64,000 nucleotides of DNA from an uncultured virus (IMG/VR IMGVR_UViG_3300032516_007629) (taxonomy: Duplodnaviria > Heunggongvirae > Uroviricota > Caudoviricetes): the IMG/VR virus record IMGVR_UViG_3300032516_007629. One strand, 5' to 3'. Below the pieces are notes generated by a model. The model saw only the letters and a list, made by a program, of their open reading frames with translations. It made no database searches and was not told the origin of the DNA. Positions 2,064-35,896 of the stretch are shown here, one piece after another; position 1 is the first letter of the stretch; the number at the start of each line of letters is the position of its first letter. Made by a program: the position numbers and the translations under genes.

Positions 2064-2342
2064 ATGATGAGTCTCTTGGCAAACATTCGAGATATCCTGT
2101 TTGATCGCCCCTACTCCGCAGCCGAACGCATAGCCTTTGGCGCACACGTAATTTTGTACCAAGATGTGTCTGCAAACATCAGCGCCGAAAGGACAAATTG
2201 CAACGGCACCTACGGCATGCGTCTTTGCATAAGAGATGGAAACGCTACAGTATCGATTGATCTGTCGCCAGATGCCGCATTTAATGTTGCCAACCAAATC
2301 AAAGATGTGGTCCAACGACTCGTACAGCAAAATAGAAGTTGA
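2064..2342 (+). CDS. Hypothetical protein
   Basis: ORF with AGGAG SD upstream. Confidence 0.6.
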   Translation: MMSLLANIRDILFDRPYSAAERIAFGAHVILYQDVSANISAERTNCNGTYGMRLCIRDGNATVSIDLSPDAAFNVANQIKDVVQRLVQQNRS

Positions 2343-2367
2343 CAAATCCAAAACGGATCGTTAGATT
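2339..2367 (+). promoter_or_regulatory. sigma70-type promoter of tRNA operon 1
   Basis: TTGACA-17 nt-TAGATT. Confidence 0.85.
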
Positions 2368-2418
2368 AAATACTAAGGGTACCCAGTGGGTGTCCTGAAT
2401 TTAATTTCAGAGGGTGTC

Positions 2419-2478
2419 TTGAAAAATAAATTTTACAGCATGTGGTATTTTTACTTCTCCTCGGAGCGAAGGGAATAA
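2419..2478 (+). CDS. Leader peptide 1, MKNKFYSMWYFYFSSERRE (attenuator of the Met/Phe/Tyr/Trp tRNA operon)
   Basis: TTG start after GAGGGTG SD. Eight of codons 5-13 are F/Y/M/W, matching the four downstream tRNAs. Confidence 0.85.
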   Translation: MKNKFYSMWYFYFSSERRE

Positions 2479-2497
2479 CACGGCTATTTGCCTAAAT

Positions 2498-2532
2498 AAA
2501 ACCCCGCTCCTACTTCAGGTGCGGGGTTTTTT
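2498..2532 (+). terminator. Intrinsic terminator (attenuator) before tRNA operon 1
   Basis: AAAACCCCGCTCCT-ACTTC-AGGTGCGGGG-TTTTTT. The 5' arm can alternatively pair with GGAGCGAAGGG (2463-2473). Confidence 0.9.
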
Positions 2533-2571
2533 GCGTTTAAGGAGGTGAAAGGACAAAGTGTTTTTATAGAC

Positions 2572-2648
2572 GGCGGTGTAGGCAAATTGGTTTGCCACCA
2601 TGCTCATAACGTGGATCAATGTGGGTTCGAGTCCCATCACCGCCACCA
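2572..2648 (+). tRNA. tRNA-Met(CAT), probably elongator
   Basis: Acceptor GGCGGTG/CACCGCC, anticodon arm CCATG-CTCATAA-CGTGG, GTTCGAGTC, encoded CCA. No initiator GGG/CCC stem. Confidence 0.9.
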
Positions 2649-2651
2649 CAT

Positions 2652-2728
2652 GCCAAGATAACTCAGCCAGCTAGAGTGTCCGAATGAAAATCGGAAGGTC
2701 GTGGGTTGAAATCCCACTCTTGGCACCA
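2652..2728 (+). tRNA. tRNA-Phe(GAA)
   Basis: GCCAAGA/TCTTGGC acceptor, TCCGA-ATGAAAA-TCGGA, CCA end. Confidence 0.92.
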
Positions 2729-2730
2729 AT

Positions 2731-2814
2731 GGGAGAGTCGCCTAATTGGACGGGCAACGGACTGTAAATCCGCCGATTAATTTCAAGTGAGTTCGATTCT
2801 CACCTCTCCCACCA
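2731..2814 (+). tRNA. tRNA-Tyr(GTA)
   Basis: GGGAGAG/CTCTCCC acceptor, CTGTAAA loop, extended variable region, CCA end. Confidence 0.92.
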
Positions 2815-2825
2815 TTTTTCCCAAT

Positions 2826-2899
2826 ACGGTAGTAGCTTAATGTAGAGCCTTGGACTCCAAATCTAAGAGGCGTCGGATCAACCCCGACCTACCGTGCCA
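2826..2899 (+). tRNA. tRNA-Trp(CCA)
   Basis: ACGGTAG/CTACCGT acceptor, TTGGA-CTCCAAA-TCTAA, G73-CCA. Confidence 0.88.
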
Positions 2900-2959
2900 C
2901 ATTGGACACCCGCCTCGCTAAATGTTAAAATCCAAAAAACCATTTAGCGCGAGGCATAT

Positions 2960-3322
2960 TTGAAAATCAAAGAACTAAAAGCAGTCCTAAATAGTATTGG
3001 TGATCGTTACGACGATTGGGATTTAGCTATCCCGCTGTCTAAGCCATCGATTGGGGCTATCGCTACCTGCAAAGTGCGAAGCATCAGTTTTGGTTTTGAC
3101 TGGGAACACGGCAAGGCTTTGATCAATCCGGAAGGTCGGCTAAACGAGAAAACAAAACCCGAAGATGTCTATCACGATGCCTCTGAATTTCTCCTGTGGC
3201 TTGCCACGAAGCCAATTAAACGAGAAACTTACGAAATGAGGGAAGCTAAAAGGATCCTGCTACGTGCAGGACACACCGAGGAAGATCTTTGTAAGTACCA
3301 AAGATATTTGCACGAGGTTTAA
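2960..3322 (+). CDS. Hypothetical phage protein
   Basis: ORF with GAGG SD and its own TGGACA-17-TAAAAT promoter. Confidence 0.65.
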   Translation: MKIKELKAVLNSIGDRYDDWDLAIPLSKPSIGAIATCKVRSISFGFDWEHGKALINPEGRLNEKTKPEDVYHDASEFLLWLATKPIKRETYEMREAKRILLRAGHTEEDLCKYQRYLHEV

Positions 3323-3330
3323 AGCAGGCT

Positions 3331-3558
3331 ATGTACAAACTAAATGTTGATCCAGACAAGCTTAAAAACCTTGCCAAAGACGAAGAGGGGTTTGATATCT
3401 CCGCTGGTATTCCAGTGATCCCACCACTACCAGATCGACCCTTTGACCCTAATGCTACCATAGCTATCTGCGGCGAGTGCGGACTTGAACTAAAAACTGT
3501 GATGTGTTATTCATGTTCAAACCCAAAGTGTCCTTGCTTTCCTCAAATTAGGTGTTAA
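3331..3558 (+). CDS. Small Cys-rich (zinc-ribbon-like) protein
   Basis: CGECG...CYSCSNPKCPC. Confidence 0.55.
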   Translation: MYKLNVDPDKLKNLAKDEEGFDISAGIPVIPPLPDRPFDPNATIAICGECGLELKTVMCYSCSNPKCPCFPQIRC

Positions 3559-3562
3559 AAAA

Positions 3563-3874
3563 ATGGGATGGATCTATTTACTTATAGCGATTCTACTAGA
3601 GTTTGCTGGTACTTTTAGCCTGAAGTATTCTGAAGGATTCACCCACCTCCCCCCCGTCTTCTATGCTTTATGCTTTTATCTTGGGTGCCTGCTTAGCTTC
3701 ACCCTTGCACTAAATCATCTAGAACTTTCCCGCATGTATGCCCTATGGACCGGCATCGGTACCATCCTGTCCGTGTTCGTTGGCTATTACTTCTTCAAAG
3801 AACCTCTAGGTGCGCTCAAGTGCTTTTCCATTTTCCTTATTGTTCTCGGCGTGTTAGGCACTATAACCTTTTAA
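3563..3874 (+). CDS. SMR/DMT-family small multidrug transporter
   Basis: 103 aa, four hydrophobic segments, WIYLLIAILLE (conserved TM1 Glu), KYSEGF, YALWTGIG. Confidence 0.9.
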   Translation: MGWIYLLIAILLEFAGTFSLKYSEGFTHLPPVFYALCFYLGCLLSFTLALNHLELSRMYALWTGIGTILSVFVGYYFFKEPLGALKCFSIFLIVLGVLGTITF

Positions 3875-3921
3875 GCCTCTGGTGCCAAAGATTAAGTAAA
3901 AATACTGGGGGTTCCAAAAGG

Positions 3922-4977
3922 ATGAAAAAGATCTTTATAACTGGTGCTACGGGTATGATTGGGGGTGAGATTGCGTTGAGGTTAGCTGCTACCTGTGAGG
4001 TGTCCTGTTTAACTCGCGGGGGTTCGCAGGAGGAGGCGCAGAAGCGGTTAGATCTTAGGTTAAAGAAGAGTCTTTTGTTTCGGGATCTGGGGATCAAAGC
4101 TGTTTTAGGAGATTTGCATCAAGAGGGTTTGGGTGTAGCGGGTGATTACGATATAGACGTGATAGTGCATGCGGCGGCTGAGACGGCTTTTAACGATGCT
4201 GATTCGTGCCGCCTCACTAACATTGAGGGTACGAAGAGGGTTATTGAGTTTGCTAAGCGTTGTAAAAATCCTCCATTATTATGTTACATAAGTACTGCAT
4301 GTAATGTAGGTGCGGTTACTAATACGTGTTTAAAGGAAGAGGATGGGTGTCGTTTAGACAATGAGCACCACAATGAATACACGAAGTCGAAGGCTATATC
4401 TGAGACCTTGATTCGCAATTCAGGGTTACCTTTCTTGATTATTCGTCCGCCTATTGTCTTAAGTGACAGTGTAAAGGATAGGGGATTTGCGCGTCAGATC
4501 TTTTGGTTTGCCCCTATCGTCTTTAAATTTAAAGCGGTACCAGTCTCCCCAACATCTAGGTTGGATATTATCCCAGTGAGTTACTTAGTGGAATATATCG
4601 ATAAGCTCTTAGCACTGCCTGAGAGGAAATATGACTGTTATAATATATCTGCGGGTGAAAAGGACTGCTTTACTTCTTTTGAATGGGTAGAAGCTATCCG
4701 CAAATTTAATAAGGCTTCTTATGCCCCTAAGCTGATACCTCCAGCAGAGTGGACTAAAGACGATTATAAAAAATATGTCAATACACCGGACCTGGCGAAA
4801 TCCTTTCGGAGCTTGCAGTATTATTTTCCCTTTATGACCATGGATGTCGTATTCAATAACGCTCGACTTCAAGAAGAGTTTGGCGTATTAAAAGTCCCTC
4901 CACTACATACCTATGTGGACACCATCCTAGCTCAAGTGTCGGAAGAGGAAGCTTTAGAGGAGAGCCAGGCACCGTGA
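3922..4977 (+). CDS. Extended SDR NAD(P)-binding oxidoreductase (fatty-acyl/thioester reductase-like)
   Basis: IFITGATGMIG Rossmann motif, HAAA, YISTA, YTKSK catalytic YxxxK, IIRPPIV. Confidence 0.85.
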   Translation: MKKIFITGATGMIGGEIALRLAATCEVSCLTRGGSQEEAQKRLDLRLKKSLLFRDLGIKAVLGDLHQEGLGVAGDYDIDVIVHAAAETAFNDADSCRLTNIEGTKRVIEFAKRCKNPPLLCYISTACNVGAVTNTCLKEEDGCRLDNEHHNEYTKSKAISETLIRNSGLPFLIIRPPIVLSDSVKDRGFARQIFWFAPIVFKFKAVPVSPTSRLDIIPVSYLVEYIDKLLALPERKYDCYNISAGEKDCFTSFEWVEAIRKFNKASYAPKLIPPAEWTKDDYKKYVNTPDLAKSFRSLQYYFPFMTMDVVFNNARLQEEFGVLKVPPLHTYVDTILAQVSEEEALEESQAP

Positions 4978-5062
4978 AACAGCATGACTTAATTTTCTCA
5001 ATTATTTTGTTCGCATTCATTACCGCAATCCTCGTTCTAGGATTTTTTCTAGACAGTAAAAT

Positions 5063-5091
5063 TTGACAGATCCATTTTCGTCTGCTAGATT
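5063..5091 (+). promoter_or_regulatory. sigma70-type promoter of tRNA operon 2
   Basis: TTGACA-17 nt-TAGATT. Confidence 0.85.
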
Positions 5092-5121
5092 AAATGGAGT
5101 AGGTAATTTTTGGAGATAAAA

Positions 5122-5190
5122 ATGTTCAACGTATCCATTAGTACAATTTGCACCTCGGTCTCAACGACCGGAGCGGGGCTTTTGCACTGA
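5122..5190 (+). CDS. Leader peptide 2, MFNVSISTICTSVSTTGAGLLH (attenuator of the Ile/Ser/Ser/Thr/Cys/Val tRNA operon)
   Basis: GGAG SD and ATG. Codons 4-16 are all V/S/I/T/C, matching the downstream tRNAs. Confidence 0.9.
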   Translation: MFNVSISTICTSVSTTGAGLLH

Positions 5191-5205
5191 TTTTGCGATG
5201 AACGC

Positions 5206-5255
5206 AAGCAAACCCCCCGCCTCCGAGAAAAAGGAAGCGGGGGGGTTTGCTTTTT
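5206..5255 (+). terminator. Intrinsic terminator (attenuator) before tRNA operon 2
   Basis: AAGCAAACCCCCCGCCTCC...GGAAGCGGGGGGGTTTGC-TTTTT. The 5' arm can alternatively pair with GGAGCGGGG (5170-5178). Confidence 0.9.
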
Positions 5256-5257
5256 AG

Positions 5258-5331
5258 GGGCGTGTAGTTCAATGATAGAGCACCTGCCTGATATGCAGAA
5301 GACGAAAGTTTGATTCTTTCCACGCCTACCA
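5258..5331 (+). tRNA. tRNA-Ile(GAT)
   Basis: GGGCGTG/CACGCCT acceptor, CTGC-CTGATAT-GCAG, ACCA end. Confidence 0.85.
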
Positions 5332-5341
5332 GAAGTTAAAA

Positions 5342-5557
5342 GTGCAAGCACGTAAGACATATAAACACATTAACTGCCTAGACACAGCGATAGAGGTTCA
5401 AAGGATATTGGGAGTATGTGAAGATGGAACATTGTCCGTATTAGTTTCTTGGTGGAATATACGCGCAAAGATTCCTAGGAAAATTGTTAGGTACCAGGCA
5501 GTTAACATAAGAAAGGAGGAGATAGATAACTGGAAAGAATGGCATAGGGCAGCCTAA
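5342..5557 (+). CDS. Hypothetical protein inside tRNA operon 2
   Basis: 71-aa ORF between tRNA-Ile and the HNH gene. Confidence 0.5.
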   Translation: MQARKTYKHINCLDTAIEVQRILGVCEDGTLSVLVSWWNIRAKIPRKIVRYQAVNIRKEEIDNWKEWHRAA

Positions 5558-5564
5558 AAACAAG

Positions 5565-5774
5565 GTGGCTCATTGGCGATTTCAAAAACAAAGGATAATG
5601 GCGCTTAGGGGCGGCAAATGTGAATTGTGTGGATTTAAAGAGTACCCGGAAATTCTTCATTCACACCATATAATCCCTCGATCTTCTGGAGGTAGTAATA
5701 ATGATGAGAATTTAAGATTAATTTGTCCAAATTGTCACGCTATTGAACACCACTTAATGCGTACTGCTAGTTAG
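5565..5774 (+). CDS. Small HNH endonuclease inside tRNA operon 2
   Basis: CELCG...HHIIPRSSGGSN...NLRLICPNCH. Confidence 0.85.
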   Translation: MAHWRFQKQRIMALRGGKCELCGFKEYPEILHSHHIIPRSSGGSNNDENLRLICPNCHAIEHHLMRTAS

Positions 5775-5787
5775 TGTTTTATTTTAC

Positions 5788-5875
5788 GGAGCAATGAGTG
5801 AGAGGCTTAAACTAGCGGTCTTGAAAACCGCCGTGGGTAAAACCACCATCCGTTCAAATCGGATTTGCTCCTCCA
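5788..5875 (+). tRNA. tRNA-Ser(TGA)
   Basis: GGAGCAA/TTGCTCC acceptor, GCGGT-CTTGAAA-ACCGC, long variable arm, CCA end. Confidence 0.92.
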
Positions 5876-5926
5876 TTTTTTCTTTGCAGTATACTACTAG
5901 GTAATATAAGTGACGTAGGTTAACAT

Positions 5927-6019
5927 GGATGCTTGGGTGAGTGGCTTAAACCATAACTTTGCTAAAGTTACGTACTCTATAAAGGGGTACCGTCCGTTCG
6001 ACTCGGACAGCATCCGCCA
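5927..6019 (+). tRNA. tRNA-Ser(GCT)
   Basis: GGATGCT/AGCATCC acceptor, TAACT-TTGCTAA-AGTTA, long variable arm, GCCA end. Confidence 0.92.
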
Positions 6020-6020
6020 T

Positions 6021-6099
6021 GCCACAATAGCTCAGTTGGTAGAGCAGTCGCCTTGTAAGCGAAAGGTCGGTTCGGGTTCGATCCCCCCTTGTGGCTCCA
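6021..6099 (+). tRNA. tRNA-Thr(TGT)
   Basis: GCCACAA/TTGTGGC acceptor, TCGC-CTTGTAA-GCGA. The T-stem carries an apparent 3-nt TTC bulge. Confidence 0.85.
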
Positions 6100-6110
6100 T
6101 TTTAGATTAA

Positions 6111-6191
6111 GAGGCAGTGTGCCGAGTGTTGAAGGCGGTCGCCTGCAAAGCGACAAAATCATCGTGGGTTAAAATCCCATCTGCCTCTCCA
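6111..6191 (+). tRNA. tRNA-Cys(GCA)
   Basis: GAGGCAG/CTGCCTC acceptor, GTCGC-CTGCAAA-GCGAC, U73-CCA. Confidence 0.9.
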
Positions 6192-6212
6192 ATAGATTTG
6201 ATAGAAAGTTAA

Positions 6213-6290
6213 GGGCGTATAGGTTAGTTGGTTAAACCGTCTCGTTTACACCGAGAAGATCCGTAGGTTCAAATCCTACTGCGCCTACCA
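6213..6290 (+). tRNA. tRNA-Val(TAC)
   Basis: GGGCGTA/TGCGCCT acceptor, TCTCG-TTTACAC-CGAGA, ACCA end. Confidence 0.92.
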
Positions 6291-6612
6291 CTTTTTTAGC
6301 AACCGCCGCGTCCCATATGCGTTTATTCTCAGGCACACGTAACGTGGTCTCAAAAATACAAGTAAATTTCTCCGCCAAATATTCCAAATTGTATGGGTAG
6401 ACAACTAATGCGTCTTCACCGTGAATAGACGCATCGGTAAAGTCTTTGCCGCTTGCCAAAGTTTGCTCGCAAATCTTAATGTACTCATTCATCAAGCCAC
6501 AAAATTCTATAAATGGATGGTTGCCTATCTTGACAGCAGAGTAGTACAGCGTTGAGCTAGCATCGTGCATGCCCTTGATCATCGTCATCAATTCTTCTTT
6601 AGAATATGTCAT
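6232..6612 (-). CDS. Hypothetical phage protein whose 3' end overlaps tRNA-Val in antisense
   Basis: 126-aa ORF (HPFIEFCGLMNEYIKIC). The last ~19 codons are the reverse complement of tRNA-Val. Confidence 0.6.
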   Translation of the reverse strand: MTYSKEELMTMIKGMHDASSTLYYSAVKIGNHPFIEFCGLMNEYIKICEQTLASGKDFTDASIHGEDALVVYPYNLEYLAEKFTCIFETTLRVPENKRIWDAAVAKKVVGAVGFEPTDLLGVNETV

Positions 6613-6773
6613 CTTAGCTCACAATTTTAAGTGTGTAATAGAACGTATAAAGCACACAAGTTAAAAAGAATAAGAGAAAGCCCATGCGTAACGCCAAGAC
6701 TCCTACGTCCCCTCCCCCTTCCTCAAGAAGGTAAACACCAGAAGCCAATAGGAACAAAGATATGATGAGAAAA

Positions 6774-6989
6774 TTATTCAACTTTTGGTGCCTTAGGCTG
6801 TTTGCGCAAACATCCGCAGGACCTCGTATTCTTACGGATTAGAGCCTGCCTATTCACTATTATATATTCACCACATTGGCATTTACATTTCCAGTGTGCT
6901 CTGACTTTCAAGTATGCAAACTCTATTACGGTTAACCTGCCGTGCTGCTCGCCTATCATGCATTTAATTTTAGTCACCTGCGATTCCAA
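6774..6989 (-). CDS. Truncated homing-endonuclease N-terminal domain
   Basis: IGEQHGRLTVI...WKCKCQCG...RSCGCL resembles the N-terminus of 1235..1906 but lacks the nuclease domain. Confidence 0.65.
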   Translation of the reverse strand: MESQVTKIKCMIGEQHGRLTVIEFAYLKVRAHWKCKCQCGEYIIVNRQALIRKNTRSCGCLRKQPKAPKVE

Positions 6990-7393
6990 AAATTAAAGGG
7001 TGTCAACAAAAACCGAAGCCTTATACTCAGGCTCTCCCTGCACCACCTGTAATTCCACCAGCACACCTCTCGGGTTTGTATAACCTATATTGCTGATGTA
7101 TTGCTCAATAGCCTGGTATATTTCATTTTCTGTTAAATGTATTTGAACTTTCATCACCCCTCAACTACACTAAAAGCATGACTGAAGAACTCTACGAATG
7201 GCAAGTATGGTACCACGTTTTAGGCGTTAAAACCTATACGAATGTCGTCGCTCCCGATGAAATCCTAGCGTGGGAAATCGTGGAAAAGACCCTAACTACA
7301 CGCGAATATTGGTTAGAAAATGTAATAATGTTAAGACGTTACATAGATTGATCTTAGCAGTTAGTTAGGCTATGCTAGCCATCTAATTGGGGG

Positions 7394-7867
7394 GTGTTTA
7401 TGGCTTTGTATGATTTAGAGCGTGGCGGTGCTGAGATAGAGGCTCACTCGTTTTATAAGAAGTACATTCACAATACGGCTAAGAGCCTAGCGCCTGCTTC
7501 TTTTGATTTAATGGTATCTATTATAGACGAGGCTATCAATAATTTACAGCCTTCCGAGAAGAGTAAACTTCTTTGGACTCGTTGTGCTGCGTTATGCGGC
7601 TACCAAGCGGAGACTCCAGACGATTCAAAAAATCACATATGGGGAGAAGCTATAGTCGCTTGTAGATTTGATCCAGAGGGACCTAACAAGTTTGTAGGCT
7701 CCCTTATCATGTGGCGGATATCGTTACGTGAGGATACTTGGCTTACCTCAAAAACGAAAGATACGGGCGGCGTGCATGACTATAGAGGGTACTGGATCAA
7801 TAACAATTTTGTTCCATACAGAAAAGCTACGCTGCAAGACTTAGCAGGTAAGTTTAATCGAATTTAG
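7394..7867 (+). CDS. Hypothetical protein
   Basis: ORF with TTGATC-17-TATGCT promoter upstream. Confidence 0.6.
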   Translation: MFMALYDLERGGAEIEAHSFYKKYIHNTAKSLAPASFDLMVSIIDEAINNLQPSEKSKLLWTRCAALCGYQAETPDDSKNHIWGEAIVACRFDPEGPNKFVGSLIMWRISLREDTWLTSKTKDTGGVHDYRGYWINNNFVPYRKATLQDLAGKFNRI

Positions 7868-7876
7868 ATTAAAAGA

Positions 7877-8122
7877 ATGAGGACATTCAAGCAGCAAGTT
7901 TTAACTGAGTACGAACTCCACGAGATCGCTACGGAGCCTTTACCCGAAGAATCTGTAGGCATCTTGCGCCAAAGGGTGCATGATAAAAGTGGGAAAAAAG
8001 AATGGGTCTTATTAGATAGGAAGGGGAAACGTCCCCTTGAATGGTTTGGTGTTACTCGTCCTTCTGACGAGCGTGTTAAAAAAGCAGAGAAGCGCGTACA
8101 GTTTTTTAAACATCAAGGTTAA
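7877..8122 (+). CDS. Small basic protein with FKxxVxxxY motif
   Basis: MRTFKQQVLTEYEL N-terminus, C-terminus RVQFFKHQG. Confidence 0.6.
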   Translation: MRTFKQQVLTEYELHEIATEPLPEESVGILRQRVHDKSGKKEWVLLDRKGKRPLEWFGVTRPSDERVKKAEKRVQFFKHQG

Positions 8123-8202
8123 TTCGGAGCTTTTGTGCGCCTCATACTAAAATTACCTGTACCCGACGATTAGGTTTCTAAACCTAATTCGGAGGGCATT
8201 AT

Positions 8203-8748
8203 ATGGCTAAGACATCGCTTGATACTTTGAAATATTTCAAAGGAAATTACGAGCAGCAAGACAATTTTATTAAAAATTGTCTTGCATGGGTTTTTGAGCA
8301 GTACGAGACCCCGCTTGAGAAGTACTACCGCTTAGAGCTTCTCCATGCGGCTTATCGTGAGGGTGTTCTTAAAGGCTGGCTTGCTTGCTCTTACCCTGAG
8401 TTTGAGAAATGCATACTAGGTAGTGTAGTCATAGGACGGCGCTCCTATGACTACCCAAGGTGGTCTTATGTGTACTATCGGGATTATCCTGAGTACCGGG
8501 ACGGTCCCAAGTATAGGAAGAATAAAGATCATGCCCCTAAAGAGGAAAATCCTAAGGCTGCGTGGCGGGAGTATAAGAGGTTTAAAAGGGATAAGGTTAA
8601 ACATAGGCACTGGGGATCGGGTCGCCGCAATGTAGCTAAGAAGATACAAAACCGCAAAAGGCGGGGGTTAGAGCATATGTACTTCGCTAAAGGCGATTGG
8701 GATGCCTACCTGCCCGAAGTCAAAGCGGATCCTTGGATGTGGGACTGA
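8203..8748 (+). CDS. Hypothetical basic protein
   Basis: GGAGG SD, followed by the inverted repeat at 8759-8787. Confidence 0.6.
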   Translation: MAKTSLDTLKYFKGNYEQQDNFIKNCLAWVFEQYETPLEKYYRLELLHAAYREGVLKGWLACSYPEFEKCILGSVVIGRRSYDYPRWSYVYYRDYPEYRDGPKYRKNKDHAPKEENPKAAWREYKRFKRDKVKHRHWGSGRRNVAKKIQNRKRRGLEHMYFAKGDWDAYLPEVKADPWMWD

Positions 8749-8758
8749 GAGATATCAA

Positions 8759-8787
8759 GGCTTTCTTACCTAAGTGGTAAGAAAGCC
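8759..8787. terminator. Hairpin between convergent genes
   Basis: GGCTTTCTTACC-TAAGT-GGTAAGAAAGCC perfect 12-bp inverted repeat. Confidence 0.6.
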
Positions 8788-9621
8788 ATTCTAATAGCAC
8801 CCACTGCTCATGTACACTGAGCGAACCGTCTTTTGTTCTACAGATAGCGGGTGGAGCTTGATCATGTATAACGACTACAAGCATCTTATCTGTTATCTAG
8901 TAATTGTTTTTGCAATTTAATGATTTTACTTAAACGTCGATTAGACATGATAAGCAAACCGGCATAGAAGGCAAGCACGCCACTGATAAAAAAACTAATC
9001 CACTGCGCTAAGTTGTCTTCCATTTTTCCTCCGGTAAAACTCCCTTACCATCACAGGCACGGCAAGGATAATTTTTAGCACCTGTATCGGTCCAGGACAT
9101 CTGATCCCCCGCAACCCACGGCGGACGAGATACCGTCCCCGCTCCGTTGCACACAGGACACGCCGTCACTTGCGCGACCTCTTGGCTGTCTGCGGAAACC
9201 TACAGCGACGATCATTTTTTGGTGGCTTTGGAATCTTCATCTTTTTCTTCCTTGAGGGGGCGTCCACTAGAAACTGCTTAACCCACTCAGCATAATCAGG
9301 TCTTTTTGGACATTCCCAAATTTCTTTTTTAATTCTCACGCCGTCTGTGTACACAATTTCAGGTGTAACGTCAATACAAATCCTACCTACTGATATCATT
9401 GACTAATTAAGATAAAGTTAAGAAATAGCTAAACCAGCCTACACTTTCTGGAAACGAACAGCGTCTCAAGATTCACTGTATGAAAAACACCAGTTAAAAC
9501 CGCTTGCGTTTACAACGTCGGAAGCTTATCGTTTAAAAACTAAATTCTAGACTCCATTTCCAGAAGTACCGTATTTTTGCGGTGCTTTAGGGGTTTTTTT
9601 GTCTGAAAAGGGAGAAACCTT

Positions 9622-12318: not shown

Positions 12319-12336
12319 GAGTGTAGGAGAAATCAC

Positions 12337-13260
12337 ATGAACAAGTATTCCATCTTTCCCATTAATTACCCAGAATACTGGGAAGCTTATAAAAAACAGC
12401 AACACGCTTTTTGGACCGCCGAAGAGCTAGACTTTGCTATGGATCTAAACGACTGGTTTACTAAACTTACGGACGATGAAAGGCACTACATAACATATGT
12501 ACTAGCTTTCTTTGCTCAATCCGATGGTATAGTAAACGAAAATCTAGCAGTACGCTTTTACTCTGAGACTTCTATTCCTGAAGTAAGAGCTTTTTATACC
12601 GCCCAGATGTTCATAGAAACAGTTCATGCAGAAGTGTACGGGCTGCTCATAGAGACGTATATTAAAGATAACGTAGAAAAAGCCAAATTGTTCGATGCCA
12701 TTAACCATATTCCGGTTATAGCAAAAAAAGCTGAGTGGGCACTAAAATGGTTAAACAGTGATAAGAGCGAAGCGCACAGATTAGTCGCATTTGCTATCGT
12801 GGAAGGTCTATTCTTCAGCGGCTCTTTCTGCTCAATCTTCTGGTTAAGAAAAAGAGGTTTAATGAAAGGTCTAGCTACCGCCAATGAACTCATTGCTAGG
12901 GATGAAGGTCTACATGCAGAATTCCCCGCCATGAGGTTTAAAACCGAAAACTTCTATATAAGCGAAGCGGATTTTCGTGAAATTATTATGGAAGCCGTAG
13001 AGATCGAAAAAGAATTCGTAAGAGATGCCCTGCCGGTAAGACTTATCGGTATGAATGAGAAACTCATGTGCGAGTATATCGAATATACAGCCGATAGACT
13101 GTCTCGGAGATTTAACTTCTCCAAGGTATACAATACGGAAAATCCATTCGATTTCATGAATATGATCGACATCGATACGAAAACCAACTTCTTTGAAAGC
13201 AGAGTTACCGCCTATAAGAAACCAGCTAATACCACATTAGCCTTCGGTGCCGATTTCTAA
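12337..13260 (+). CDS. nrdB: Ribonucleoside-diphosphate reductase class Ia beta subunit
   Basis: FWTAEE, FFAQSDGIVNENL, ETVHAEVY, EGLFFSGSF, RDEGLH, KTNFFE. Confidence 0.97.
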   Translation: MNKYSIFPINYPEYWEAYKKQQHAFWTAEELDFAMDLNDWFTKLTDDERHYITYVLAFFAQSDGIVNENLAVRFYSETSIPEVRAFYTAQMFIETVHAEVYGLLIETYIKDNVEKAKLFDAINHIPVIAKKAEWALKWLNSDKSEAHRLVAFAIVEGLFFSGSFCSIFWLRKRGLMKGLATANELIARDEGLHAEFPAMRFKTENFYISEADFREIIMEAVEIEKEFVRDALPVRLIGMNEKLMCEYIEYTADRLSRRFNFSKVYNTENPFDFMNMIDIDTKTNFFESRVTAYKKPANTTLAFGADF

Positions 13261-13375
13261 GATTAAATAAATACCCCCTTCCTTTTCCCCCGGCGACCAG
13301 CCGGGGACCTCGGCTCCTGTCCCGATGGGGTATTACGTGTAATTAAAATACACACGAAAAATTTAGAGGTGACAA

Positions 13376-13870: not shown

Positions 13871-13918
13871 ACCCTCTGGTAATATGGAACCATACACCAC
13901 ATTACCAGAGGCACCACC

Positions 13919-15503: not shown

Positions 15504-15521
15504 AATTGCCTCCTCCCTATC

Positions 15522-17736: not shown

Positions 17737-17782
17737 AGGATCCCCAACGCAAAATTTTTAGCAAAATCTAAATTACCATAGA

Positions 17783-30382: not shown

Positions 30383-30458
30383 GGACCCATAGCTCAATGG
30401 TTAGAGCAGCAAACTCATAATTTGTTGGTTCGGGGTTCGAGTCCCTGTGGGTCCACCA
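30383..30458 (+). tRNA. tRNA with CAT anticodon, probably tRNA-Ile2 (lysidine, reads AUA)
   Basis: GGACCCA/TGGGTCC acceptor, TAGCTCAATGGTTAGAGCA D-arm and CTCATAA loop resembling bacterial Ile2. Met identity is not excluded. Confidence 0.8.
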
Positions 30459-30467: not shown

Positions 30468-31337
30468 CTACCACCTGATTTGCCCCTCTTTTAGCTTCTT
30501 AAACGTAATCCTTTCTACTTCCATCTTTTCTTCACCTTTATATTTTAACGTCTTCAAAACGCTCCTAGCATCGCGGCATAACGTGCGAAAACCATCTGGC
30601 TCCAAGGATGCCGAATGGTCTGTGCCCCGCCAAGTGCGATCTAGTGTGAAATGCCGTTCGATGTATGTAGCGCCTAGGGTAAGGGCGGCAATATCGGCGG
30701 CAATTCCTAGGTGGTGCCCGCTAAATCCTACAGCTTTTACCCTACCTTGGTACTTGGTAATCAGGTTAGGGATCTCAAGCAAGCATACATCTTCAAAGGC
30801 GACGGGGTACCCAGAAGTGCATGAATATATTACTAAATCTTGATGTCGTTTATTGACCTCAAAAAGTGAAACAATTTTTTCGATTTCATCCTCTTCAGTC
30901 ATTCCCAGAGACAAATGTATCTCACCTGTAAAACCCGTGATTAGTTCCATCAACAGAGGCTTGTTTAGGTTACACGCTGACGGCACTTTGATCATTTTTG
31001 GTTGTAATGTTATTATTTCCTTTGCTGACGTTACGTCCCACACCGAAGTGGAGTACTCTATGTGAGCCTCATCACACCAACGCTTTAGCTGTGCATGTTC
31101 TTCGATAGTGAACTCTAACCGTTCCCTGTGTTCGCCATAGCTTGCCCCATAGCTATTATACCCATTAGGGTGTGGAGCGTTGTACTCTTCCTCCGTAAGA
31201 AGCTCTCTAATGCAACGTTTTTGGAATTTTACAACGTCTGCTTTAACAATGTGGCTAGCCACTTCAATCATCTCTTTGGCTATTTTAAGCTCACCCTTGT
31301 GATTGCACCCGATCTCCGCTATTAGTTTAACGTTCAT
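30468..31337 (-). CDS. neuB: NeuB-family nonulosonic acid (Neu5Ac/KDN-type) synthase
   Basis: LIAEIGCNHKG, DVVKFQKR, IKVPSA, GFSGH, IERHFTLDR...DHSASLEP. Lacks the C-terminal AFP-like domain. Confidence 0.92.
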   Translation of the reverse strand: MNVKLIAEIGCNHKGELKIAKEMIEVASHIVKADVVKFQKRCIRELLTEEEYNAPHPNGYNSYGASYGEHRERLEFTIEEHAQLKRWCDEAHIEYSTSVWDVTSAKEIITLQPKMIKVPSACNLNKPLLMELITGFTGEIHLSLGMTEEDEIEKIVSLFEVNKRHQDLVIYSCTSGYPVAFEDVCLLEIPNLITKYQGRVKAVGFSGHHLGIAADIAALTLGATYIERHFTLDRTWRGTDHSASLEPDGFRTLCRDARSVLKTLKYKGEEKMEVERITFKKLKEGQIRW

Positions 31338-32026
31338 GTTGATTCTCCGTGATAATGTTTTTTCATAGCCGCCTCCGCCATGTACCAATCCTCCGGTTCA
31401 TCAATGTCAATAGCCGTATATTCTGGCATCTCGAAAATTTCAACCTTAGTTGATAACCTATTTTTAAATATTCTAATATTCTTCACGGAATTGACGTAAA
31501 ATGCTCCGTTTTCCATAAGCGTCCCTGCGAAGTCTTGGCGTCGTGGTCTATTTAGGTAGTCATAGTTTATGGGAGAACCAGCGTCACCCCAAAAAAATCT
31601 CTTTACTCTTGAGCAGGACAAGACAGAAGATTTTCCCCCGCTGTTCAAATATCGGAGAATTCCCCCCTCGTAGTCTTCCGTCCTGGTCAAAGGGCAAGTT
31701 GCTTGAGATAATAAAAAGATCGTCTCATCAGAGATGTGTTGTTTCTCTATAAACTCCAAGATAACACTTTCTGTCGTTGATGCATCCTCTGCATTTTTGG
31801 GATCTCGGTCGTAAATCTTAACTTTGCCAAAAGCAAAGTTGCTAACTACATCTTTGATATCCAGGTTATCCGTCGCTACATATATCTTATTGATGCTTTC
31901 GACTGCCGACAACGCCCGTAGGTTCCAATATACTAGTGGCTTCCCGCAGAAATCCTTTATGTTTTTCAATGGTATCGACTTGCTTCCACCACGCACAGGG
32001 ACGAAAGCAATTAAATTAGGAGCCAT
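31334..32026 (-). CDS. neuA: CMP-nonulosonate (acylneuraminate) cytidylyltransferase
   Basis: PVRGGSKSIPLKNI, QATCPL, RPRRQD, ENGAFY, DIDEPED. Confidence 0.92.
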   Translation of the reverse strand: MAPNLIAFVPVRGGSKSIPLKNIKDFCGKPLVYWNLRALSAVESINKIYVATDNLDIKDVVSNFAFGKVKIYDRDPKNAEDASTTESVILEFIEKQHISDETIFLLSQATCPLTRTEDYEGGILRYLNSGGKSSVLSCSRVKRFFWGDAGSPINYDYLNRPRRQDFAGTLMENGAFYVNSVKNIRIFKNRLSTKVEIFEMPEYTAIDIDEPEDWYMAEAAMKKHYHGEST

Positions 32027-32057
32027 GATGTCCTGCCACATAAGTGAGTTAAATAAT

Positions 32058-33164
32058 TTAGGGTAAACATTTAAATAGACGTAAATAGGTTTGGGGATCT
32101 TTATGTTGTTCTTCAGTTAGAGTAAATTCTTTTATAAGCGTAAGAAATTTATCTACATCCTCACTCCAGTGTTCTCTTGAGAAAAACTCTGCTGTTTCCT
32201 CCAGTGAAGTTGGCGGTTTGGTATAAACTATATCCGCAGCAGAGTAGTAGGTTTTACCCAAGACTATAACTTTTTTACCTAAACAAAGTGCCTCAAATCC
32301 AGCGGTGCAGCTTACGGTAATAACGTAATCCGCAGCATTCATTAAATCAAAGCCGTTCACATCTCGGCCTAAGGTAAGGGTACCTTCTAGTATCTCTTCA
32401 TCGTCTGGTGCTTTGGGGTGTCTTTTATAAATAACCTCATATTTGCTACTATCAATAACTCGTGTACACCATTGTTGGAAGCACTTCGTCTCTTCAAATG
32501 TTGAGCCGAAACCGGGAATGTCCTGTCTGACCAGATGGGTCAGAACTTGAAGAGGAACGAAAACTAATCTCTTTGTCTTGTCTAAACCATAGCGTTCAAA
32601 AATCTCATCTTTGCTATATATAATATTGCCCTGTGCGGCATCCTTAAGAGATGCTAACCACGGCAGATCTAACTGAAGTGTGTCTTTGCGCTGTTGGTAT
32701 ATGCGGGGAAGGTTGCTGGTTGTATGGAAACCCCCAAAGTTGAAAAGATACCAACTTGGTTTCCTATACATCCACATGGAGGTGAAATCTTTGTGAGTCC
32801 TGTCAAGCCTACAACTCAGGACATCTTGGCATATTACCGGAATTCCTCTAGAGCTGAAAAAGTCGTTTAAATAAACATCCTCATTCCAAAACACGACTCC
32901 CGTAAAATTATATTTATCACATAAAGGGTTCAATGTATTATCTGACAAATAGAACCAAGGGGAGTCTATGGTTTCAACTACAACGTTAGAATACGAGGAG
33001 ATATTCATGCTCGTTACCAACTCCGGAGTAGTTAAGATTACTATTTTTTGGCAGTAGTCTTTTAAACGACCTACTATGTCAACAAATAGTGAAAGTGGCC
33101 AGTCCCAAGGTGTCATAAATAGTAGGGTCTCGGCTTCGGTTAAATTTTTATAGTGCGTGTTCAT
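32058..33164 (-). CDS. Capsule-biosynthesis (KpsC/S-like) GT-B protein, candidate nonulosonate transferase
   Basis: VFVPLQ, YKRHP, VITVSCTAGFEALCLGKKVIVLG. Confidence 0.75.
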   Translation of the reverse strand: MNTHYKNLTEAETLLFMTPWDWPLSLFVDIVGRLKDYCQKIVILTTPELVTSMNISSYSNVVVETIDSPWFYLSDNTLNPLCDKYNFTGVVFWNEDVYLNDFFSSRGIPVICQDVLSCRLDRTHKDFTSMWMYRKPSWYLFNFGGFHTTSNLPRIYQQRKDTLQLDLPWLASLKDAAQGNIIYSKDEIFERYGLDKTKRLVFVPLQVLTHLVRQDIPGFGSTFEETKCFQQWCTRVIDSSKYEVIYKRHPKAPDDEEILEGTLTLGRDVNGFDLMNAADYVITVSCTAGFEALCLGKKVIVLGKTYYSAADIVYTKPPTSLEETAEFFSREHWSEDVDKFLTLIKEFTLTEEQHKDPQTYLRLFKCLP

Positions 33165-33166
33165 AC

Positions 33167-34978
33167 CTAAGCTTTTAGACCCCAAAATTCCAGCCAAGCC
33201 TTTTCTCCCAAAACTATTGGAGGTTGACCTTGAACACAACTCGGTGTGCCATCGTCTATGCGTGTTATTACGGTACCATCTGTGTCGATTAACTTCGTCT
33301 TACACTTATGAGCCGCCATAACAAAGGATCGCTCTATTACATGTGCTAACGTACCACATCTCTGACCACCCTCATCTTCAAAATTATAATTAGATAGGAC
33401 ATCTAATAAGATGTGGAGTATATCGACTCTCCCATAAAACATTGACCCAGCAATAAAAACATCTGTTCCATTTGAACCTATACGATTAGCAAATTCGGTG
33501 ACCCTAGGTTTAGTTTGAGGCAAAGTATAGTGCAGTGGTAATAGATGTCCCTTAGGACCCACAAGACCAATCGTAAAATCTTCTTTCAACTTTGTTACTA
33601 TGGATGGGTTAAGGAGCGTAGTAAGTAAATCAGTTCGCCATTGCTTATTTAACTTTGTATGTAGCTTTAAAAAATGTGAGTATTTACCTAGTATTCTAGT
33701 TTTCACCGTCGTAATAAAAGGTAATATATCCTTACCCCTGTTATCATAGCTGTCTATGGTAGCTGTAGTTGAAAACTCTCCCACAACGGCAGCAACATCA
33801 TAATGTTTATCTTTGGTGGTGGTGATAAATAAATCAATTTCTTTAGAAGAATAACATTTTAACACCTCAGCTAGGATTTCTCTCAAAATATCTGGGTAAT
33901 ACGCATGAATGACTACGGCTAATTTAGTAGTCTCGTAACTTACTTCTGTTTTGCTGCTTCCGGTTTGGTTTGCCTCTATTAAGGCTTCTTTTGTCGCTCG
34001 TAAATAGGCATCGCCAAACTTTATATCCGGCTCTAAATGTGCGCCCTCTCCCCACTCATTCCACGCATTTATAAATACTGTATTATGATGGCTTTTTTTA
34101 AATGAAGCCAACAACCTCTCTCGATACATCTCAGGTGTTGATCCATAAAAAATGTGTGCAGCTTTTCCCCGTCTCGGTGTGTTGTCCCACGATGGGCAAA
34201 CACATTTGAAGACCTTAAACGGTTTGTCTCCGCAGACTAGTCCCTTATAGTTATAAATTTTACCACTGAAATTTTGGACTGGGGTAGGCGCTGGGTCAAC
34301 GAAGAGGTCGTTGCTTTGCACACCATGAGGGGGAAATTCAAGAGCGCAATCAAACGAAGTGTGATCCTGTGACCCTCGTGTAAGAGTATTTACCACATAT
34401 AACTCCCCTATTCCATTCTCTCTACACCACTCCCGCCAACGCATAACTGTAGCTGCGATATCTTGAAAAAGGTCTAGGCGATATACGCTAATAAGAGGTT
34501 TACCCTCAATGCGAATATACCGTGGGTCTAACAGATAAGGTTTCAATGACGCTATAAAGGCAATGTCGTCTTCAGCGTTATGCCTCTGCTGCACCAATAT
34601 CTCATTTTCCGACCCATCCCACCGCCTACTCCACGTTTCATTAGCCCACATTAAACAAAATGGCATGTCTAGAGAACTATCTCTTAAGAACATCTCTAAT
34701 GGCTTGTCAAGTAGTTTGCGCCCATTAAACCAATAGTAGTAGAAACAAAACCCTCCAATACCATACTGCTTTGCTAAGTCAATTTGATGACGAAAAGTCT
34801 GAGGATTCATCAAATCGTAGTAGCCATCGCGTGGAATGTGTGGCTGGTAATGCCCCTCAAAAATAGGAGTGGCTTTTTTAACATTCGTCCACTCGGTGAA
34901 ACCCTCGCCCCACCACTCATTATTTTCAGGTACTTCATGGAATTGAGTGAGATAATAACAAATCACCTGAGCCATCAT
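33167..34978 (-). CDS. WbsX/GH99-like domain fused to an RgpF (rhamnan synthesis F)-like domain
   Basis: YYLTQFHEVPENNEWWGEGFTEWTNV, FINAWNEWGEGAHLEPD. C-terminal VIHAYY, NRGKDILPF, KLHTK, AHVIER. Confidence 0.88.
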   Translation of the reverse strand: MMAQVICYYLTQFHEVPENNEWWGEGFTEWTNVKKATPIFEGHYQPHIPRDGYYDLMNPQTFRHQIDLAKQYGIGGFCFYYYWFNGRKLLDKPLEMFLRDSSLDMPFCLMWANETWSRRWDGSENEILVQQRHNAEDDIAFIASLKPYLLDPRYIRIEGKPLISVYRLDLFQDIAATVMRWREWCRENGIGELYVVNTLTRGSQDHTSFDCALEFPPHGVQSNDLFVDPAPTPVQNFSGKIYNYKGLVCGDKPFKVFKCVCPSWDNTPRRGKAAHIFYGSTPEMYRERLLASFKKSHHNTVFINAWNEWGEGAHLEPDIKFGDAYLRATKEALIEANQTGSSKTEVSYETTKLAVVIHAYYPDILREILAEVLKCYSSKEIDLFITTTKDKHYDVAAVVGEFSTTATIDSYDNRGKDILPFITTVKTRILGKYSHFLKLHTKLNKQWRTDLLTTLLNPSIVTKLKEDFTIGLVGPKGHLLPLHYTLPQTKPRVTEFANRIGSNGTDVFIAGSMFYGRVDILHILLDVLSNYNFEDEGGQRCGTLAHVIERSFVMAAHKCKTKLIDTDGTVITRIDDGTPSCVQGQPPIVLGEKAWLEFWGLKA

Positions 34979-35048
34979 TTGCCCTTCTTAATTATTAAAT
35001 AATTATTAAATAATTAATCTATGAAGCGCATGAGAACAGGTGATTATG

Positions 35049-35140
35049 TGGCTGGGATGGTGGGATTTGAACCCACGAAGAAGCTTCCGCCTCTTGCCAG
35101 AGTCAAAGTCTGGTGCCTTAAGCCGCTCGACCACATCCCG
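35049..35140 (-). tRNA. tRNA-Gln(TTG) with atypical long variable arm
   Basis: CCAGA-CTTTGAC-TCTGG, 7-bp variable stem AAGAGGC-GGAA-GCTTCTT, C1xA72, G73-CCA. Confidence 0.85.
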
Positions 35141-35228
35141 ATAAAAAATCAAGGTGTAGCCTCACTGTCGCAATGTCCTATTGTTGAAGAAACCTCGAAT
35201 ATTTTAACATACAAATCCTTTTAAATAT

Positions 35229-35304
35229 TGGAGCGGATGATGGGACTCGAACCCACTTTCTTCAGCTTGGAAGGCTGACGCTAGACCAGTTTAGCTTCAT
35301 CCGC
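35229..35304 (-). tRNA. tRNA-Gly(TCC)
   Basis: GCGGATG/CATCCGC acceptor, TCAGC-CTTCCAA-GCTGA, U73-CCA. Confidence 0.92.
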
Positions 35305-35311
35305 AACCTTG

Positions 35312-35385
35312 TGGAGCCGATAGGGAGAATTGAACTCCCTCCCGCACACTGGCAGTGTGCCATGCTACCGTAACACTTTATCGGC
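35312..35385 (-). tRNA. tRNA-Gly(GCC)
   Basis: GCCGATA/TATCGGC acceptor, GCACA-CTGCCAG-TGTGC, U73-CCA. Confidence 0.92.
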
Positions 35386-35387
35386 AT

Positions 35388-35464
35388 TGGTGGAAGTAGT
35401 GGGACTCGAACCCACGAAAAACTTGGTTGCAAACCAAGTGCAATTGCCGCTATGCGATACCCCC
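35388..35464 (-). tRNA. tRNA-Ala(TGC)
   Basis: GGGGGTA/TACTTCC acceptor with G3:U70, CTTGG-TTTGCAA-CCAAG. Confidence 0.92.
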
Positions 35465-35499
35465 ATTACGAACCTTTAGACTTTTCTCCTTTCCTTTAG

Positions 35500-35577
35500 T
35501 GGGGTGAATGACGGTACTCGAAACCGCATTATGCCGCCTTCACAGGGCGGTGATCTTCCTCTTGATCTACATCCACC
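35500..35577 (-). tRNA. tRNA-His(GTG)
   Basis: G-1:C73, CCGCC-CTGTGAA-GGCGG, CCA end. Confidence 0.92.
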
Positions 35578-35592
35578 ATGTGGCTGTTAAGA

Positions 35593-35668
35593 TGGCTCCC
35601 CAGGTCCGACTCGAACGGACATTTTCTTGATTAACAGTCAAGTGCATTGCCAAATCTGCCACCGGGGA
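35593..35668 (-). tRNA. tRNA-Asn(GTT)
   Basis: TCCCCGG/CTGGGGA acceptor, CTTGA-CTGTTAA-TCAAG, G73-CCA. Confidence 0.92.
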
Positions 35669-35698
35669 ATAAGTACACTCCTAGCACACTTAGAAACT

Positions 35699-35727
35699 AA
35701 AAAACCCCGCTTCATCGGCGGGGTTTT
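35699..35727 (-). terminator. Intrinsic terminator (attenuator) before tRNA operon 3
   Basis: Minus strand AAAACCCCGC-CGATGAA-GCGGGG-TTTTTT. Confidence 0.9.
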
Positions 35728-35750
35728 GGTTTCTTCTTAAGACTGTTCTT

Positions 35751-35822
35751 TCAGCTTAAACCAATACCCCTAGAGCCATTACCGGCTCCATGATTTGCTT
35801 GGTTATTTTGCTGAACGAACAT
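35751..35822 (-). CDS. Leader peptide 3, MFVQQNNQANHGAGNGSRGIGLS (attenuator of the Asn/His/Ala/Gly/Gly/Gln tRNA operon)
   Basis: GGAG SD and ATG. Codons 4-16 are all Q/N/A/H/G, matching the downstream tRNAs. Confidence 0.9.
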   Translation of the reverse strand: MFVQQNNQANHGAGNGSRGIGLS

Positions 35823-35867
35823 TTTCTAACTCCAAAATACTCTATGAGGGATTTTCCCTACTCTTTT

Positions 35868-35896
35868 AATCTTAGCACCACTTTCGCCGGAGTCAA
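35868..35896 (-). promoter_or_regulatory. sigma70-type promoter of tRNA operon 3
   Basis: TTGACT-16/17 nt-TAAGAT(T) with TG extended -10. Confidence 0.75.

Follow-up and report, generated by a model that had tools for sequence, protein, structure and literature searches.

Leader peptides of enterobacteria can be multivalent, as in ilvGMEDA, whose leader senses Ile, Leu and Val, and in thrL, which senses Thr and Ile. They can also stand ahead of genes of the translation apparatus, as in pheM-pheST. The purpose of the transfer RNA (tRNA) genes of phages has been debated for decades, and the suggestions include compensation for codon usage, substitution for host tRNAs that have been degraded and evasion of anticodon nucleases; to our knowledge, the regulation of these genes has hardly been addressed. 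Here we analyse three tRNA operons in a 64-kb stretch of DNA (64,000 nucleotides in all, referred to as the window; IMG/VR record IMGVR_UViG_3300032516_007629), whose source is a large uncultured tailed phage from sediment. Each operon is preceded by a promoter, a short open reading frame (ORF) and an intrinsic terminator. The observation of these gated tRNA operons is real and far beyond chance, and its support in the sequence is given by the layout, the match in composition between leader and tRNAs, the terminators, and the complementarity between leader and terminator together with its position. Judging from these features, we consider it probable that the leaders are multivalent ribosome-mediated attenuators that exert negative feedback on tRNA supply, and that the phage probably transcribes a tRNA block only when ribosomes are slow to read the matching codons. 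We infer that the leaders are translated, that switching depends on stalling, and that the physiological trigger is loss of host tRNAs, tRNA-cleaving defences or starvation.

Like the leaders of ilvGMEDA and thrL, those of the phage are short, carry interleaved codons for several amino acids and are followed by an intrinsic terminator; in both cases, alternative pairing would be decided by the position of the ribosome, and a stall at any of these codons would result in readthrough. Unlike ilvGMEDA and thrL, the phage elements would regulate tRNAs and not biosynthetic enzymes, are present in three differently spelled copies in one genome, lack a clear 1:2 hairpin and have no kinship with those leaders by sequence or through Rfam. 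A search of the whole window with Rfam at the gathering score gave 15 matches, all of them to tRNA (RF00005), and neither a curated leader family nor a T-box. The phage leaders would work like ilv and thr leaders, lie outside the curated families, and would regulate a class of genes not known for such control.

Other described systems share part of this design. In bacilli, a leader with His codons lies before hisS paralogues, and the accessible text of the attenuator survey that reports it (PMC2965389) places leader peptides before these paralogues and none before tRNA genes. As in pheM-pheST and the hisS leaders, attenuation in the phage would govern part of the apparatus that decodes the very amino acid being sensed; unlike the phage leaders, they control aminoacyl-tRNA synthetases, sense one amino acid and are not known to control tRNA genes. 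T-box riboswitches also sense the state of a specific tRNA by means of a terminator/antiterminator switch, but they bind uncharged tRNA directly without translation, and their targets are genes for synthetases, transport and biosynthesis. In mycobacteria, short ORFs rich in Cys codons act as attenuators, and ribosomes stall there upon cleavage of tRNA-Cys by VapC4, according to the accessible portions of two reports (10.1101/834739, PMC13096801). As far as those portions go, this resembles the present proposal in that a tRNA-cleaving nuclease is sensed through stalling on a small upstream ORF, and differs from it in that the targets are Cys-related and stress genes of the host instead of tRNAs, and in that a single amino acid is involved. 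Full-text literature searches, whose coverage leaves out most subscription journals, returned no published account of leader-peptide control of tRNA genes. The accessible text of the phiCbK genome paper (PMC3556154) contains 0 occurrences of 'attenuat' or 'leader', and that of a paper on phage tRNAs (PMC10264068) holds no discussion of tRNA regulation.

The initial annotation had described one layout for all three operons, in which a promoter, a Shine-Dalgarno sequence, an ORF of 19-23 codons and a terminator precede the tRNAs, and this description proved correct: the promoter motif is found three times, and each operon has its hairpin and U-tract (Table 1). ARAGORN detected 17 tRNAs in the window, 16 of which fall in the three operons. 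The promoter motif TTGAC-N19-AGATTAAA has exactly three matches in the 64 kb, one ahead of each operon, with 0.21 expected, and at least three copies were seen in 0 of 100 shuffles. The predicted distance from promoter to first tRNA is 230-235 nt in operons 1 and 3 and 195 nt in operon 2. When the three operons are aligned, the common sequence consists of the promoter and the terminator 3' arm and little else, which suggests that the leaders are one design in three spellings.

The initial annotation had claimed that each leader is spelled in the amino acids of its own operon, with every isotype represented and no overlap between the sets, and all of this is borne out by the counts. In-set residues make up 8/9, 13/13 and 13/13 of the regulatory runs of operons 1, 2 and 3, a match reached in 0 of 10000 dinucleotide shuffles of the ORF body for each leader. 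Counted over the sets {MFYW}, {ISTCV} and {NHAGQ}, the residues of the leaders number 8/3/1 in operon 1, 1/13/5 in operon 2 and 1/4/15 in operon 3; the three isotype sets are disjoint, and the isotypes of each operon are all present in its own leader. As a comparison set we took the 2207 short ORFs of the window (12-45 codons, every start, six frames), among which no ORF other than a leader, or a version of one with an alternative start, attains the observed runs, with one tie: an antisense ORF at 58322 equals the count of 8 of operon 1, over a window of 13 residues. The two alternative frames of the leaders hold 1-5 in-set residues, so that base composition is not the cause of the match. The leader of operon 2 spells S, T, C and V, and only tRNA-Ile adjoins it, which indicates that the six tRNAs form one unit and agrees with what a sensor serving the unit as a whole would require. 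The 456-nt gap between tRNA-Ile and tRNA-Ser of this operon (5332-5787, + strand) contains a mini HNH endonuclease ORF of ~60 codons, and two near-identical metagenome copies of the locus (L001 and L014) differ there by an indel of ~60 nt at 5538-5611.

Terminator-like sites in the window number 27, and only those of operons 1 and 3 trail a short ORF that is led by a Shine-Dalgarno sequence and ends within 45 nt; the crude scan behind this count passed over the bulged stem of operon 2 on the + strand, and another scan reported the operon 2 terminator on the opposite strand. In all three operons, the best partner of the terminator 5' arm in the upstream leader is the distal part of the ORF (codons 15-22). 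This complementarity, which had been noticed in the initial annotation, is equalled in 19, 0 and 0 of 1000 dinucleotide shuffles for operons 1, 2 and 3, respectively. The hairpins start 17-23 nt past the leader stop codons, too far for a ribosome halted there to occlude the terminator directly in the manner of pyrBI, a reading that was rejected for this reason. Between the operon 1 terminator and tRNA-Met (2538-2569, + strand) there is a near-perfect Shine-Dalgarno sequence, TAAGGAGGTGA, with a three-codon mini-ORF, GTG TTT TTA TAG; when the full length is folded, the pairing partner of this region is the CUCCU stretch of the operon 1 leader.

Folding was used to follow the pairing as the ribosome moves, with the transcript stopping short of the terminator 3' arm and a ribosome footprint of 29 nt masked codon by codon. 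The occupancy of the 5' arm in operon 2 is 0.83-0.87 for a ribosome at codons 2-13, falls to 0.75 once the ribosome is at codon 14 and lies at 0.34-0.41 between codon 15 and the stop; the corresponding figures for operon 3 are 0.70-0.88 (codons 2-13) and 0.22-0.58 (codon 14 through the stop). In the minimum free energy structure of operon 1, the pairing GGAGCG..GGG : CCC..CGCUCC is found with the ribosome at codon 8 and is gone once the ribosome has reached the stop codon. The folding model thus predicts that antiterminator pairing outlasts stalls within the regulatory run and vanishes once the ribosome advances. It had been proposed that a stalled ribosome frees the antiterminator; the association of the two stands, in that the folds keep the pairing with a stalled ribosome, and the direction does not, since the folded leaders form the antiterminator by default and it is a ribosome continuing downstream that breaks it up.

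A mechanism can be proposed on these grounds, in which the three short ORFs would be translated as leader peptides, each governing, for its own tRNA operon, readthrough from a promoter of the common type. RNA polymerase would copy the leader and a ribosome would begin to translate it, meeting, in the first two-thirds, codons for the amino acids of the downstream tRNAs and, in the last third (codons 15-22), the RNA segment able to pair with the terminator 5' arm. With fast decoding, the ribosome would reach the distal codons or the stop, where the segment is unwound or covered; the free 5' arm would then form the terminator hairpin, and transcription would halt ahead of the tRNAs. If any one of the 4-5 aminoacyl-tRNA species were scarce, decoding would be slow and the ribosome would be held upstream, so that the antiterminator would be kept, no terminator would form and the whole operon would be transcribed. 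The net effect would be a multivalent negative feedback of the OR type on the supply of the tRNAs encoded by the operon.

Table 1. Coordinates of the tRNA operons and of other features in the window, with two comparable units of the Caulobacter phage CcrSwift.
Feature	Position	Strand	Details
Operon 1 promoter	2339-2367	+	TTGACA, 17 nt, TAGATT (then AAA)
Operon 1 leader ORF	2419-2478	+	MKNKFYSMWYFYFSSERRE; 19 codons + stop; TTG start; GAGG at 2411-2414, 5 nt upstream
Operon 1 regulatory run	2431-2457	+	FYSMWYFYF; 8/9 in {M,F,Y,W}
Operon 1 antiterminator strand	2462-2474	+	CGGAGCGAAGGGA; codons 15-19; predicted duplex with 5' arm -15.8 kcal/mol
Operon 1 intrinsic terminator	2498-2532	+	hairpin 2498-2530, -20.2 kcal/mol; six-T tract 2527-2532 including closing U residues
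Operon 1 tRNAs (ARAGORN)	2572-2899	+	Met(cat), Phe(gaa), Tyr(gta), Trp(cca)
Operon 2 promoter	5063-5091	+	TTGACA, 17 nt, TAGATT (then AAA)
Operon 2 leader ORF	5122-5190	+	MFNVSISTICTSVSTTGAGLLH; 22 codons + stop; ATG start; GGAG at 5112-5115, 6 nt upstream
Operon 2 regulatory run	5131-5169	+	VSISTICTSVSTT; 13/13 in {I,S,T,C,V}
Operon 2 antiterminator strand	5168-5186	+	CCGGAGCGGGGCTTTTGCA; codons 16-22; predicted duplex with 5' arm -25.6 kcal/mol
Operon 2 intrinsic terminator	5208-5255	+	hairpin 5208-5250, -29.3 kcal/mol; U-tract 5251-5255; abuts tRNA-Ile at 5258
Operon 2 tRNAs (ARAGORN)	5258-6290	+	Ile(gat), gap, Ser(tga), Ser(gct), Thr(tgt), Cys(gca), Val(tac)
Operon 3 promoter	35868-35896	-	TTGACT, 17 nt, AAGATT (then AAA)
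Operon 3 leader ORF	35751-35822	-	MFVQQNNQANHGAGNGSRGIGLS; 23 codons + stop; ATG start; GGAG 7 nt upstream
Operon 3 regulatory run	35813-35775	-	QQNNQANHGAGNG; 13/13 in {N,H,A,G,Q}
Operon 3 antiterminator strand	35757-35778	-	core GGGGTATTGGTTT; codons 15-22; predicted duplex with 5' arm -21.6 kcal/mol
Operon 3 intrinsic terminator	35699-35727	-	hairpin 35727-35701, -15.1 kcal/mol; six-T tract 35704-35699 including closing U residues
Operon 3 tRNAs (ARAGORN)	35049-35668	-	Asn(gtt), His(gtg), Ala(tgc), Gly(gcc), Gly(tcc), Gln(ttg)
Ribonucleotide reductase large subunit	9622-12318	+	intein signature
SNF2-type helicase	47223-51641	-	split by intein (Hint + LAGLIDADG homing endonuclease)
CcrSwift unit D			TTGACA-type promoter, ORF MSKTYRQFVRQIQVVRNIRAGRSRMADEGFRD, annotated rho-independent terminator (50748-50774 of the CcrSwift record), tRNAs
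CcrSwift unit C			ORF MFALSHNSLSTKAASPASLSLALLATATKPSTKPTTSASHSTDHL (annotated hypothetical protein), annotated terminator (48420-48444 of the CcrSwift record), tRNAs Pro, Pro, Lys, Lys, Leu, Leu, Leu, Ala, Ser, Ser

The initial annotation had suggested a scan of the tRNA arrays of related jumbo phages for matching leaders; in other phages, the answer is mixed, positive for two of the three units found in CcrSwift, a cultured Caulobacter phage, and negative for 41 blocks in four phages. In all, 10 phage records were sampled. For each tRNA block, the scanner went through the short ORFs within 330-450 nt upstream and scored the best run of residues belonging to the isotypes of that block. Applied to the window, it recovered operon 1 (p 3.3e-7) and operon 3 (p 6.4e-9), and operon 2 scored nothing because it is split at the HNH gap. 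No such leader was detected ahead of the 41 tRNA blocks of the T5-like Klebsiella phage IME260 (16), crAss001 (12), the Cobetia phage Carin-5 (4) and the Phaeobacter phage MD18 (9), the best p being 5.4e-4.

In CcrSwift, both the layout and the composition match are present in two of the three promoter-ORF-terminator units. The tRNAs of unit D are Phe, Val, Ile, Ile, Val, Gln, Gln, an odd call 'Ile(aat)' and Arg, and the run RQFVRQIQVVRNIR of its ORF has 13/14 residues in {F,V,I,Q,R}; nucleotides 53-69 of the ORF pair with the terminator 5' arm at a calculated -31.5 kcal/mol, a value reached in 0 of 1000 shuffles. The ORF of unit C has 31/44 residues in {P,K,L,A,S} (p 1.5e-6), including a run of 14/14, and its antiterminator complementarity is marginal (64 of 1000 shuffles). 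Both ORFs are unique in the CcrSwift locus, which has 331 short ORFs. The ORF of unit D apparently has no 5' leader, and leaderless mRNAs are reported to be translated efficiently in Caulobacter in the accessible part of PMC4117421. The leaders persist across the family, in CcrRogue, CcrBL10, phiCbK, CcrColossus and CcrPW, and its distant members, CcrPW and CcrColossus, retain the composition in peptides whose sequence has diverged. The CcrPW run RNNVQQIRVRQ scores 11/11, and an annotated tRNA-Asn is present in that phage. For the 44-residue leader of Swift, 41/44 residues fall in the union {P,T,K,L,H,A,S}. The records of these phiCbK-like phages list the ORFs as hypothetical proteins and mark the hairpins as predicted terminators. 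Like the window, these phages combine the same layout with a composition match; unlike it, they are unrelated in sequence and host, are GC-rich, have leaders of 31-44 codons, one of them apparently leaderless, and show a looser fit to the present-day tRNA content, with one Glu/Asp unit without a match.

Some further observations concern the CcrSwift units themselves. Between the unit D terminator and tRNA-Phe, at 9590-9673 of the analysed locus L027 (50818-50901 of the CcrSwift record), a tRNA-Tyr-like sequence was recognised by eye, with a GTA anticodon loop, a long variable arm and a CCA end; neither ARAGORN nor Rfam called it. A single Tyr codon is present in the leader of unit D. In CcrPW, similar Tyr-like and Phe-like sequences lie ahead of tRNA-Val. 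Two CcrSwift tRNA units (L027 6069-6100 and 6865-6895) have in common a promoter-like motif, TTGACA-N11-TTGTGAGAGCCT, which is unlike the promoter of unit D.

The attenuator reading of the initial annotation has gained in that the promoter, the ribosome-binding site, regulatory codons cognate to the tRNAs supplied, the intrinsic terminator and an alternative pairing placed so that the ribosome would decide its fate were all found in the sequence, and in that the design recurs in an unrelated family of cultured phages. Several points weigh against it. Folds of the three leaders gave no convincing 1:2 anti-antiterminator or pause hairpin; small hairpins occur within or after the leader ORFs, and the ribosome-free folds are nonetheless antiterminated, unlike in the trp paradigm. 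Folds at full equilibrium favour the terminator in all states, so that the model hinges on co-transcriptional order and kinetics. Operon 1 is the weakest case, with a TTG start behind GAGG that is weaker than the ATG and GGAG of the other two and a complementarity that shuffles do equal, and its masked occupancy is uninformative because a G-rich hairpin of the 5' untranslated region is a rival partner. The description of the leaders as codon-matched holds at the amino-acid level and for 29/34 in-set codons of the runs, which phage tRNAs can decode under standard wobble rules; it fails for the remaining 5/34, which are NNC codons of four-codon boxes for which the phage has a U34 tRNA only. Trp, Met, Cys and His are each represented once per leader, and single regulatory codons in attenuators should mean low sensitivity. 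Extra tRNA would not be a remedy for amino-acid starvation. Within the phiCbK-like family, unit B of CcrSwift (Glu/Asp) has no enrichment (3/8, equalled by 32 of 331 ORFs), and the leader follows poorly the lineage-specific loss and gain of Ser, Thr and His tRNAs.

The lineage of the phage itself adds another point of this kind. Homologues of the SDR-type gene between operons 1 and 2 reach down to ~50% identity, and 24 loci were obtained when metagenomes were scanned with an SDR alignment, 19 of which were examined for tRNAs. The operons were present in 4 copies only, each 99.5-100% identical to the window; among the other 15 loci, 14 had no tRNA and one, unrelated, had a single tRNA-Met. In the near-identical copies, the leaders are unchanged (operon 1 in 2/2, operon 2 in 4/4). 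A related phage contig, with seven ORFs in common with the window at 61-78% amino-acid identity, has zero tRNAs in the 21 kb analysed. Copies as close as these four are not informative on conservation or covariation.

The initial annotation had proposed that the attenuators could serve to counter anticodon nucleases of the host or starvation. We tentatively suggest that leader gating of tRNA operons could be a recurrent, convergently evolved phage circuit, in which modules grouped by isotype are induced when anticodon-nuclease defences degrade or cleave host tRNAs. An alternative to the main reading, clearly less likely than it, keeps the same RNA device and takes the signal to be the amino-acid supply or tRNA charging of the host, so that it would act as a sensor of starvation or growth state and not as a counter-defence. 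It draws on the fact, established for the trp, his and ilv attenuators, that a leader ORF senses aminoacyl-tRNA and is blind to the difference between low tRNA and low charging, and nothing in the window links the operons to an anticodon nuclease, the sole hint being an RNA ligase gene. This alternative is weakened by the products regulated, which are tRNAs and not biosynthetic enzymes, and by the futility of a feedback in which the added tRNA leaves the starvation uncured. The ligase gene (54689-55723, + strand) encodes a protein of family PF09414, and a search of its surroundings detected no polynucleotide kinase partner; a role in tRNA repair is possible for it, and would suit a phage that faces tRNA nucleases.

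A different proposal accepts translation of the leaders and replaces stall-induced antitermination with a constitutive damper or timer tied to translation capacity, or with control of the processing or stability of the precursor. The antiterminated state predicted without a ribosome and the absence of a synchronising pause hairpin from the folds are in its favour, and the lone W, M, C and H codons speak against fine sensing of each tRNA. A sensor of general capacity, however, has no need of a composition match, and the three disjoint, operon-specific codon sets, together with the parallel in phiCbK-like phages, favour isotype-specific sensing, which makes this proposal improbable. More doubtful still is that tRNA anticodons read the codon run without a ribosome, in the manner of a multi-specifier RNA analogous to a T-box. 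T-boxes prove that leader RNAs are able to read anticodons, and the run is indeed a string of cognate codons; nevertheless, every Rfam match at gathering level is a tRNA and none a T-box or other family, a tRNA-docking architecture is not apparent, and the runs are in frame with a start, a Shine-Dalgarno sequence and a stop, with the match limited to one frame. Finally, that ordinary terminators or insulators coincide with untranslated chance frames is hardly credible: short ORFs and hairpins are common, and consensus promoter-like sites over 1-20000 are at shuffle level (41 vs 38.6 expected), but no shuffle reaches the runs, the leaders are essentially unique among the short ORFs of the window, the terminators sit downstream of the promoters and not upstream, the complementarity is significant and constant in placement, and the design recurs in an unrelated phage family.

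The remaining content of the window is that of a phage with no close relative among isolated phages. It includes two SNF2-type helicases, one of which is split by an intein, several HNH endonucleases and a tail-sheath-like protein. Searches with blastn of 2300-6400 and 35040-35900 against isolated phages matched short tRNA stretches only, and tblastn of a 999-aa protein against the same phages gave no match; the best identity of a 724-aa protein is ~30%, to Klebsiella myophages. Scans of IMG/VR with three single proteins and one alignment revealed no close relative. The sediment-metagenome runs listed with near-identical DNA number 24, all of them DNA runs and none RNA. A seventeenth tRNA, a lone tRNA-Met(CAT) at 30383-30458 (+ strand), lies outside the three operons, is absent from the initial annotation and has neither a short ORF nor a terminator upstream. 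It is probably not an initiator, given the G1-C72-type acceptor end and the absence of GGG/CCC from the anticodon stem, and its possible identities are an elongator Met tRNA and an Ile tRNA of the lysidine type. Immediately downstream of operon 3 is a sugar cluster of the nonulosonic-acid/glycosyltransferase kind (30468-34978, - strand), with a NeuB-like synthase, a cytidylyltransferase, a capsule-synthesis-type protein and a WbsX/RgpF glycosyltransferase.

As the same layout is found in cultured phiCbK-like Caulobacter phages, the idea that leader peptides attenuate tRNA operons is directly testable. If it is true, leader-peptide attenuation would be widened from genes for amino-acid biosynthesis and synthetases to tRNA genes, the sequence signature would tell which tRNAs make up one regulatory unit, and such circuits would be readable straight from a genome sequence. 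The leaders could also provide synthetic biology with compact, programmable and codon-specific sensors. For the phages themselves, it would mean that they track the supply of tRNA in real time and produce tRNAs on demand.

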